This document shows, in pieces, positions 5,949-6,502 of a stretch of 10,818 nt of DNA (positions are counted from its first letter, which is position 1; the number at the start of each line of letters is the position of its first letter). The notes beneath the pieces were generated by a model. That model was not told where the DNA came from. It searched no databases and saw only the letters and a program-made list of their open reading frames with translations. Made by a program: the position numbers and the translations under genes. Source of the DNA: a virus (Duplodnaviria; Heunggongvirae; Uroviricota; Caudoviricetes); IMG/VR virus record IMGVR_UViG_3300029816_000030. One strand, given 5' to 3'.

Positions 5949-6023
5949 TGGAGCGGGCAGCGGGAATCGAACCCGCATCATCAGCTTGGAAGGCTGAGGT
6001 AATAGCCATTATACGATGCCCGC
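5949..6023 (-). tRNA. tRNA-Gly (anticodon UCC)
   Basis: Hand-folded 75-nt cloverleaf GCGGGCATCGTATAATGGCTATTACCTCAGCCTTCCAAGCTGATGATGCGGGTTCGATTCCCGCTGCCCGCTCCA; 7-bp acceptor stem, anticodon loop CUUCCAA, encoded CCA; matches my recollection of E. coli glyT. Confidence 0.9.
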
Positions 6024-6139
6024 ATCCTGGAACTCGGCTACCTGATTTTCATTCTGCACTGAATATCGAGAGAAGCTCTCTTTATTCGAGCCGGTAAGCG
6101 AACTTATCGTCTCGGGCTACGCCATCGCGTGGCCGAAAT

Positions 6140-6224
6140 TGGTGGTGGGGGAAGGATTCGAACCTTCGAAGTCTGTGACGGCAGATTTACAGTCTGCTCC
6201 CTTTGGCCGCTCGGGAACCCCACC
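6140..6224 (-). tRNA. tRNA-Tyr (anticodon GUA), long variable arm
   Basis: 85 nt, GGTGGGGTTCCCGAGCGGCCAAAGGGAGCAGACTGTAAATCTGCCGTCACAGACTTCGAAGGTTCGAATCCTTCCCCCACCACCA; matches my recollection of E. coli tyrU. Confidence 0.9.
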
Positions 6225-6232
6225 GGACTTGA

Positions 6233-6308
6233 TGGTGCCGACTACCGGAATCGAACTGGTGACCTACTGATTACAAGTCAGTTGCTCTACCTACTGAGCT
6301 AAGTCGGC
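6233..6308 (-). tRNA. tRNA-Thr (anticodon UGU)
   Basis: 76 nt, GCCGACTTAGCTCAGTAGGTAGAGCAACTGACTTGTAATCAGTAGGTCACCAGTTCGATTCCGGTAGTCGGCACCA; anticodon loop CUUGUAA; 8-nt spacer to tRNA-Tyr; thrU-like. Confidence 0.9.
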
Positions 6309-6310
6309 AC

Positions 6311-6387
6311 TGGACCGCCACCGGGGACTCGAACCTCGCACACTCAACTTAAAGGGTTGACGCTCTTTCCTGATGAGCTAGTGGCGG
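6311..6387 (-). tRNA. atypical tRNA or tRNA-like gene (anticodon loop CCUUUAA, predicted anticodon UUU/Lys, with C33 and C1-G72)
   Basis: 77 nt, CCGCCACTAGCTCATCAGGAAAGAGCGTCAACCCTTTAAGTTGAGTGTGCGAGGTTCGAGTCCCCGGTGGCGGTCCA; perfect 7-bp acceptor stem, D stem GCTC/GAGC, anticodon stem TCAAC/GTTGA, T loop TTCGAGT, one A-C mismatch in the T stem, encoded CCA. Position 33 is C rather than the near-invariant U. Confidence 0.5.
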
Positions 6388-6388
6388 C

Positions 6389-6464
6389 TGGTGGCCCTTG
6401 CTGGATTTGAACCAGCGACCTGGCGATTATGAGTCGCTCGCTCTCACCACTGAGCTAAAGGGCC
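6389..6464 (-). tRNA. tRNA with CAU anticodon, ileX/ileZ-like (probable tRNA-Ile2 reading AUA after lysidine modification; elongator Met not excluded)
   Basis: 76 nt, GGCCCTTTAGCTCAGTGGTGAGAGCGAGCGACTCATAATCGCCAGGTCGCTGGTTCAAATCCAGCAAGGGCCACCA; anticodon arm core GCGACUCAUAAUCGC and acceptor C4-G69/C5-G68 match E. coli ileX as I recall it. Confidence 0.85.
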
Positions 6465-6473
6465 GGGCGCAGG

Positions 6474-6502
6474 ATAATAACGTTACGAAATCAATGTTGC
6501 AA
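6474..6502 (-). promoter_or_regulatory. sigma70-type promoter driving the tRNA cluster
   Basis: Minus strand reads TTGCAA (-35, 6502-6497), 17-bp spacer, TATTAT (-10, 6479-6474), then GC-rich discriminator CCTGCGCCC directly abutting the first tRNA 5' end at 6464. Confidence 0.5.

Follow-up and report, generated by a model that had tools for sequence, protein, structure and literature searches.

We analysed a 10,818-nucleotide (nt) stretch of DNA (hereafter the window) from the Caudoviricetes record IMGVR_UViG_3300029816_000030 of IMG/VR, with attention to an array of transfer RNA (tRNA) genes located between the genes of antiterminator Q and holin S. Five tRNA genes were called there by both ARAGORN and the Rfam tRNA model RF00005; the Rfam scores were 44–74 bits with a gathering score of 29 (Table 1). 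Consecutive genes are separated by 1, 2, 8 and 116 nt, and CCA is encoded in all five of them. An earlier sequence-only reading of the window had described a cluster of five tRNA genes between a Q-like gene and the holin gene, in the slot where Shiga toxin (Stx) phages carry ileZ-argN-argO. The genes and the cluster position were confirmed, with the corrections that all five genes are on the minus strand and that the Tyr-Gly spacer, given as 115 nt, measures 116 nt. The slot is the same as well: the first two tRNA genes together with the promoter block are ∼91% identical to ileZ-argN, and the array (6464–5949) is placed between the Q/pR′/tR′ region and the lysis genes, as are other arrays of the Q-S interval in lambdoid phages. 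We characterize the array as a promoter-driven tRNA operon of mosaic composition, carried by a lambdoid Escherichia coli prophage in its variable Q-to-S slot.

Table 1. Features of the tRNA array and its surroundings in the window, with the evidence used for each
Feature	Coordinates	Strand	Evidence
tRNA (CAU), predicted Ile2 (lysidine) type, ileZ homologue	6464–6389	-	ARAGORN; Rfam, 72.5 bits
tRNA (UUU), 'Lys*', atypical, argN-family scaffold	6387–6311	-	ARAGORN; Rfam, 44.4 bits (lowest of the five)
tRNA-Thr(UGU), same as thrU	6308–6233	-	ARAGORN; Rfam; alignment to chromosome
tRNA-Tyr(GUA), same as tyrU	6224–6140	-	ARAGORN; Rfam; alignment to chromosome
tRNA-Gly(UCC), same as glyT	6023–5949	-	ARAGORN; Rfam; alignment to chromosome
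Host-identical block (1 nt, thrU, 8 nt, tyrU, 116 nt, glyT)	6309–5949	-	megablast
Segment missing from the four-tRNA form (7 nt of spacer, tyrU, 114 nt of spacer; 206 nt)	6231–6026	-	Alignment of siblings
Predicted sigma-70 promoter of the tRNA operon, TTGCAA-17 nt-TATTAT	6502–6474	-	Consensus scan; comparative footprint
argN-scaffold anticodon variants	Window 6311–6387; L020 1032–1108; L100; L027	- in window	Sequence comparison
Antiterminator Q gene, upstream boundary of the slot	7348–6659	-	PF06323 in contigs with the identical protein
pR′-like late promoter, TTGCAA-17-TATATT, overlapping the Q stop codon	6675–6647	-	Consensus scan, 9/12 matches
tR′-like intrinsic terminator, hairpin then T6, minus-strand AAAACCCGCCCACAAGCGGGTTTTTTG	∼6598–6570	-	Read from sequence
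Structured leader between the array and holin S, 293 nt	5948–5656	-	RNA folding
Class II holin S gene, downstream boundary of the slot	5655–5440	-	PF04971 in relatives

The Thr-Tyr-Gly part of the array has a host origin. In megablast searches the 361-bp block was 100.0% identical to a chromosomal locus in essentially all of the 5,426 complete E. coli genomes, where its counterpart is annotated as the tRNA-Thr, tRNA-Tyr and tRNA-Gly genes of the coaA-thrU-tyrU-glyT-thrT-tuf locus. The identity spans both non-coding spacers; its limits are 1 nt upstream of thrU and the final base of glyT. Neither thrT nor tufB nor the native upstream/promoter region is present, and in the alignment the block is flanked by phage DNA on both sides. 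The likeness to thrU-tyrU-glyT that the sequence-only reading had proposed, including the absence of thrT and tufB, was confirmed. The same reading had proposed that the cluster was captured from a host tRNA operon, with two extra tRNA genes added upstream; here the host origin of Thr-Tyr-Gly held, while a single-capture history did not. The order of the additions was probably the reverse: the host block sits at the position of argO in an array of the older ileZ-argN type, and it is the host block that probably joined this phage array, not vice versa.

The nearest phages and prophages (vB_EcoS-689R5, vB_EcoM-606R7, PhiR47_1 and the EBJ003 prophage) carry a shorter array, Ile2-Lys*-Thr-Gly, in which the Thr and Gly genes are base-identical to thrU and glyT and are located 3 nt apart. 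Of 16 loci fetched, 15 have TAT as the linker between the two genes and one has TGT. Since TAT consists of the first nucleotide of the thrU-tyrU spacer and the last two nucleotides of the tyrU-glyT spacer, it is the remnant to be expected from a clean deletion of tyrU with both spacers. We observed the four-tRNA array in ∼600 of the 5,426 complete E. coli genomes and the Thr-TAT-Gly junction in at least 120 IMG/VR contigs. Among the IMG/VR matches listed, the contexts were Ile2-Lys(UUU)-Thr-Gly (50), Ile2-Arg(UCU)-Thr-Gly (36) and Thr-Gly alone (17), and ∼34% of the listed cassettes had a Thr allele, ∼13% a Gly allele, unlike that of the chromosome. The bare Thr-TAT-Gly, with neither Ile2 nor Lys*, also occurs in unrelated lambdoid contexts; in the Rac*W prophage of E. 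coli W it stands behind a different Q-like gene and its Gly has a compensated stem change.

Judged by these sequences, the tyrU-less cassette is old, of single origin and mobile. It would have been derived from the host thrU-tyrU-glyT, the common form having lost tyrU and both spacers to leave Thr-TAT-Gly. A recurrent identical deletion of tyrU, leading from five to four tRNA genes, was also considered and is disfavoured: the absence of microhomology at CACCAT/ATGCGG makes it more likely that the four-tRNA form arose only once.

The E. coli W genome paper names the Rac*W tRNA genes thrX/tyrX (PMC3032704). We rejected this locus as a finished-genome precedent for a phage-borne tyrU, because it is Thr-TAT-Gly; both its annotation and its sequence (L023 28218–28371, NC_017635.1) give tRNA-Thr and tRNA-Gly, and the published 'tyrX' label appears to be wrong.

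The form with five tRNA genes is very rare. It was found assembled in one place in none of the 5,426 complete E. coli genomes, and in junction-specific megablast searches of these genomes neither the Ile2-Lys*-Thr-Tyr nor the Tyr-spacer-Gly-leader junction was seen. A search with an anchored pattern spanning the 3′-end of Lys*, the 5′-end of Tyr and the phage leader produced 0 matches in species-representative genomes and 0 in IMG/VR. The same pattern had one match among metagenome contigs, locus L005 on the 515-kb contig OBCT01000001.1, with flanks ∼97% identical to those of the window and a different haplotype in the discriminator as well as in the stretch from tR′ to the promoter. Each of the two flank haplotypes, that of the window and that of L005, also exists in the four-tRNA form. 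Among deposited phages the five-tRNA junctions were not found, and for tyrU with the spacer the sole matches were two Salmonella chromosome contigs misfiled in the phage collection.

Sibling contigs (L006/L016, L017 and L018) are 99.7–100% identical to the window on both sides of the 206-nt segment and are devoid of exactly positions 6026–6231. Those with the exact DUF968 and Q proteins of the window are 0–2 single-nucleotide polymorphisms (SNPs) off; L017 differs by 8 positions and 5 gaps. The exact DUF968 protein was found in only 5 contigs of a large assembly index; four of them, all from ENA metagenome assemblies, were examined, and the three that reach the tRNA slot all have the four-tRNA spacing. 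The MEGAHIT contig k119_12385 (ERZ27235179) aligns to the window with 0 mismatches over 4311–6025 and 1 over 6232–10818, and is without 6026–6231; the single difference, at 8473, is synonymous and private to the window. The identical Q protein is also encoded by ten further contigs, each of which has the four-tRNA form or lacks tRNA genes. With one private SNP with respect to the four-tRNA siblings, the window should therefore be seen as a derived tip within the four-tRNA clade, and for this sequence the parsimonious direction of change would be from four tRNA genes to five. The tyrU part is thus either a very rare and very recent secondary addition or an assembly chimera through repeats of 78 and 77 nt.

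L024 and L025, IMG/VR contigs that both derive from a single isolate genome (IMG genome 2681813004), carry Ile2-Lys*-Thr followed by the authentic 8-nt spacer, nucleotides 1–35 of tyrU and then unrelated DNA; therefore, a Thr-Tyr junction has existed in phage DNA. Such truncated forms of tyrU were present in none of the complete or species-representative genomes. The two cassettes (L024 2144–2433, minus strand; L025 2992–3283, plus strand) are ∼290 nt long, 98% identical and end at the same base within the tyrU anticodon. Their flanks differ, the cassette being located before a methylase open reading frame without a DPPY motif in L024 and after that frame in L025. The breakpoint in the anticodon loop resembles what we take to be a crossover site of a tyrosine integrase.

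We give a probability of about one half to the explanation that tyrU was re-inserted by recent recombination of a four-tRNA prophage with the host chromosome or with a fragment of host DNA. The four-tRNA phage and the chromosome have in common arms of 78 nt (T-thrU-T) and 77 nt (AT-glyT); these thrU and glyT stretches would have served as homology arms for the gain of 206 nt. The exact sequence of the window would result from gene conversion by the chromosome or a double crossover with it, and equally from annealing of a host fragment during phage replication. As RecE-type exonucleases are encoded by relatives of the prophage family, recombination through such short arms is possible; recombinases of this class work with arms of ∼77–78 nt. 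We also count in favor of recombination that L005 is a second, independent occurrence of the five-tRNA form on the other flank haplotype. Several observations weigh against this explanation. Both five-tRNA sequences come from metagenome-type assemblies, the five-tRNA form was seen neither among sampled draft isolates nor among the ∼600 complete-genome carriers, and the sequence would read the same whether it arose by genuine recombination or as a graph chimera across the two arms. On the functional side, considered below, the gain in codon supply from duplicate wild-type thrU and glyT was deduced from only 2,646 phage codons.

The same sequence would arise if the real phage has four tRNA genes and a short-read assembler made a detour from the thrU repeat through the chromosomal tyrU edge to the glyT repeat and back into the phage, an explanation that we consider distinctly less probable, if still a serious competitor. 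Because Thr and Gly of the four-tRNA form match thrU and glyT base for base, both paths run between one and the same pair of repeat nodes, as a bubble. The contrast between ∼600 four-tRNA carriers and no five-tRNA form among the complete genomes agrees with such a detour, as do the four-tRNA arrays of metagenome siblings one SNP away and the metagenome origin of the only other case, L005; k119_12385 shares the coordinate frame of the window, which suggests that the window itself is a short-read metagenome contig. Still, by our own reasoning, de Bruijn assemblers normally break at repeats of this kind rather than thread two of them, and bubble popping needs paths of similar lengths while these differ by 206 nt. 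Moreover, the contig that holds L005 is 515 kb long and of a different haplotype, and the truncation of tyrU on a phage Thr in L024/L025 cannot be a graph walk, so that a precedent for a real junction exists. One could also suppose that the five-tRNA form is a relict, ancestral and produced by one illegitimate capture of thrU-tyrU-glyT, with tyrU lost since then from most phages. The TAT linker and the contigs with truncated tyrU do imply an ancestor with the same Lys*-Thr junction that bore Thr-spacer-Tyr, and the junctions with phage DNA are identical in all forms. We find this history improbable for the window, however, given that it is one private SNP away from several four-tRNA contigs and nested in their clade, that the two five-tRNA cases occur on different flank haplotypes, each known with four tRNA genes as well, and that the five-tRNA block is undiverged even in its spacers whereas the Thr and Gly alleles of the listed old cassettes have diverged in the above proportions (∼34 and ∼13%).

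Recent recombination with host DNA, if the tyrU form is real, would make a clean and datable instance of host-to-phage flow of a tRNA gene: the identity is perfect even in the spacers, the pre-insertion allele is known, and the flow would run through arms no longer than a tRNA gene. Should the form be an artefact, it would still serve to warn that identical tRNA genes of prophage and chromosome can yield plausible chimeras in metagenome assemblies.

The phage ileZ-argN lineage is the source of the promoter, the Ile2-type tRNA and the second tRNA, with the anticodon of the second tRNA rewritten to UUU. The CAU tRNA is identical in alignment to ileZ of Stx2a_F349, and the identical gene is called tRNA-Ile by PGAP. 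Its body is ileX/ileZ-like, and its acceptor stem reads C4-G69 and C5-G68, pairs that we take to be TilS determinants. From its sequence the gene is of the Ile2 type, and its product is predicted to undergo lysidine conversion and to be charged with Ile.

The UUU tRNA is homologous to argN (anticodon UCG), with ∼90% identity of the scaffold and the same unusual C1-G72 and U73. The anticodon loop reads CCUUUAA where argN has CUUCGAA, so that position 33 is C; in the anticodon stem there are compensatory changes, namely G30A with C40U and also G43A. We argue from the compensatory stem changes that the UUU tRNA is likely to be functional. Across phages the argN-type scaffold was seen with anticodons UCG, UCU and UUU and, in one IMG/VR contig, with the ochre-reading UUA. 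The acceptor stem has a G3-U70 wobble in the Stx-phage argN (L020 1032–1108) and in a Lys-like tRNA of PPompW (L021 1475–1550), and G3-C70 in the window copy; G3-U70 is, we presume, the classic alanine identity element.

The sequence-only reading had also claimed a promoter of the array's own directly upstream, and comparison of relatives bears this out. In 40 distinct haplotypes of the upstream region TTGCAN and TATTAT recur 17 nt apart, although the sequence between them has turned over almost completely; because the hexamers and their spacing persist through this turnover, the footprint is convincing as the mark of a real promoter of the tRNA operon. The promoter block upstream of ileZ is kept in an Stx2 phage with an unrelated Q as well (comparison with Stx2a_F349). 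The discriminator that follows TATTAT is GC-rich (CCTGCGCC), and the promoter is located 8 nt ahead of the first tRNA gene. The other promoter-like sequence, at the end of Q, is a candidate pR′, as its place relative to Q and the hairpin downstream fit the lambdoid pR′/tR′ layout. The palindrome of the tR′-like terminator was flagged on the plus strand too and is invariant in the window, L005 and EBJ003. Since the tRNA promoter is downstream of tR′, Q-independent transcription is plausible, and so is expression of the tRNAs in the lysogen: the array would be transcribed from its own sigma-70 promoter without Q and, late in infection, would also be read through from pR′.

Codon usage in the phage genes of the window (2,646 codons) was compared with that in 47 chromosomal genes of E. 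coli W (14,926 codons). The phage genes were enriched in AUA (3.0-fold), ACA (2.0-fold), GGA (2.3-fold), GGG (1.5-fold), AAG (2.2-fold) and AAA (1.3-fold); Tyr was at about 1-fold, with ratios of 0.9 (UAU) and 1.6 (UAC) for its two codons. Thus, of the codons to which the sequence-only reading had drawn attention, AUA, ACA and GGA are enriched and UAU is not. The enrichment agrees with a codon-supply role for Ile2, Lys*, Thr-UGU and Gly-UCC, and with tyrU being dispensable. The array would add gene copies for low-abundance decoders of AUA, ACA, GGA/GGG and AAA/AAG, and tyrU would be a neutral passenger.

Whatever the history of tyrU, the array might serve mainly to defeat tRNA-cleaving nucleases (P2 Old, AriB of PARIS, PrrC-type) and not to match codons; as an account of the whole array we think this unlikely. 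Killing by P2 Old, the classic system against lambda, proceeds through destruction of tRNA-Thr(UGU), the product of thrU (PMC12445682), and anticodons UUU and UGU are both present in this lambdoid array. The site of AriB is U36-A-A-U39-C40/A41, and its cleavage is abolished by U39A (PMC12409363); Lys* has U36-A-A-G39-U40-U41. P2 Old needs a paired CNG motif in the tRNA (PMC12445682), and the CAA/UUG stem of Lys* has none. We predict from these substitutions that Lys* resists both AriB and P2 Old, which should be taken as a lead rather than a result. A Thr allele from IMG/VR (L124) with compensated changes that lose both CNG motifs points the same way. On the other hand, the Thr of the window, along with 118 of the 120 listed cassettes, retains the wild-type CUG/CAG motif and the UAAUCA site, and an extra wild-type tRNA-ThrU gives little or no protection (PMC12445682). 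Also, Gly, Tyr and Ile2 tRNAs are not reported as prime nuclease targets, and the codon enrichment accounts for four of the five tRNAs.

Given this retention of the CNG motif, we rejected the suggestion that the phage Thr copies are Old-resistant. The thrU copy of L124 (gene start 4614) carries A27G, C28A, C32U, G42U and U43C and is a candidate for an Old-resistant tRNA-Thr in a lambdoid phage; the Thr of L110 has only the 3′-strand half of a change of this type.

The Stx-type phage tRNA slot is a modular, fast-evolving locus, and its content overlaps the prime targets of P2 Old and PARIS; the array, especially the rewritten UUU tRNA, is therefore testable as an anti-defence device of a temperate phage. 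The tRNAs of virulent phages that resist these nucleases (T5 tRNA-Lys/Thr/Asn versus PARIS; a phage tRNA-Thr versus P2 Old) share with the array the anticodons UUU and UGU, and the substitutions in Lys* fall on just those positions on which AriB cleavage depends (PMC12409363), its resistance being predicted from sequence. Unlike them, the array belongs to a temperate lambdoid prophage, and its Thr is wild-type and predicted to be sensitive.

Among arrays described previously, ileZ-argN-argO of Stx phages (933W type; gene names as in AP012530.1) has the same place after Q/pR′/tR′ and before the lysis genes, a homologous promoter block, an ileZ identical in alignment and, as second gene, the argN homologue. 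The differences are the anticodon of the argN-type tRNA (UUU in the window instead of UCG), the absence of argO (UCU), the third gene, at whose position the window has Thr-Tyr-Gly, and the absence of stx genes after the window array. Close relatives with the same Q family bear ileZ-argN-argO in place of the array of the window. With the E. coli operon thrU-tyrU-glyT-thrT-tufB the window shares thrU, 8 nt, tyrU, 116 nt and glyT base for base, and differs from it in having no native promoter region, thrT or tufB. The four-tRNA arrays Ile2-Lys*/Arg-Thr-Gly and the bare Thr-Gly cassettes agree with the window in the phage junctions, the promoter and the Thr and Gly sequences, but Thr and Gly are separated by the 3-nt linker TAT/TGT there and by 209 nt in the window. 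Thus, ileZ-argN-argO in the lambdoid Q-S slot and the four-tRNA array, annotated in hundreds of genomes, were already known. New are the rare tyrU-containing variant with its perfect identity to the host, the reconstructed relation of this variant to the common cassette, and the connection of the rewritten argN-type tRNA with the determinants of Toprim nucleases.

One could speculate further, and we hold this combined picture to be rather doubtful, that prophage tRNA arrays act as landing pads for tRNA operons of the host, where 77–78 nt of identity would be enough for repeated and ongoing exchange of lambdoid phages with the host thrU-glyT operon, probably by a RecET/Red-type recombinase of the phage itself, so that the five-tRNA form would be a real and recurrent recombinant, observed two times. 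In the same picture the argN scaffold would be a chassis for anticodon switching (UCG, UCU, UUU and even UUA), its UUU version being a tRNA-Lys replacement of temperate phages that resists PARIS and P2 Old.

The leader that follows the array has a predicted fold of −95.1 kcal/mol (z = −4.3), and 0 of 200 shuffled sequences folded as well. It contains three long perfect or near-perfect hairpins, and the region is kept in relatives; a search of 5656–5948 against Rfam matched no family. Just before S, at ∼5741–5720, the leader has a terminator-like CCGC-TTTT-GCGG-T6 with a stem of 4 bp in the window and 5 bp in L005.

Elsewhere in the window, the early region encodes a hok/sok type I toxin-antitoxin system (9364–9539 and 9214–9426, both on the minus strand; Rfam sok, 120.5 bits), the gene beside sok being annotated as hokD in relatives. 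Epoxyqueuosine reductase QueH is encoded at 9607–10293 on the minus strand. QueH performs the last step of queuosine synthesis, and queuosine modifies G34 of tRNAs with GUN anticodons, including tRNA-Tyr(GUA); one prophage thus has both a tRNA-modification gene and, in the window, a tRNA of the queuosine family (Tyr). A moron-like gene for a GNAT-family acetyltransferase (3404–3889, plus strand) is located on the opposite strand between the lysis and packaging genes, and the EBJ003 annotation also calls it GNAT.

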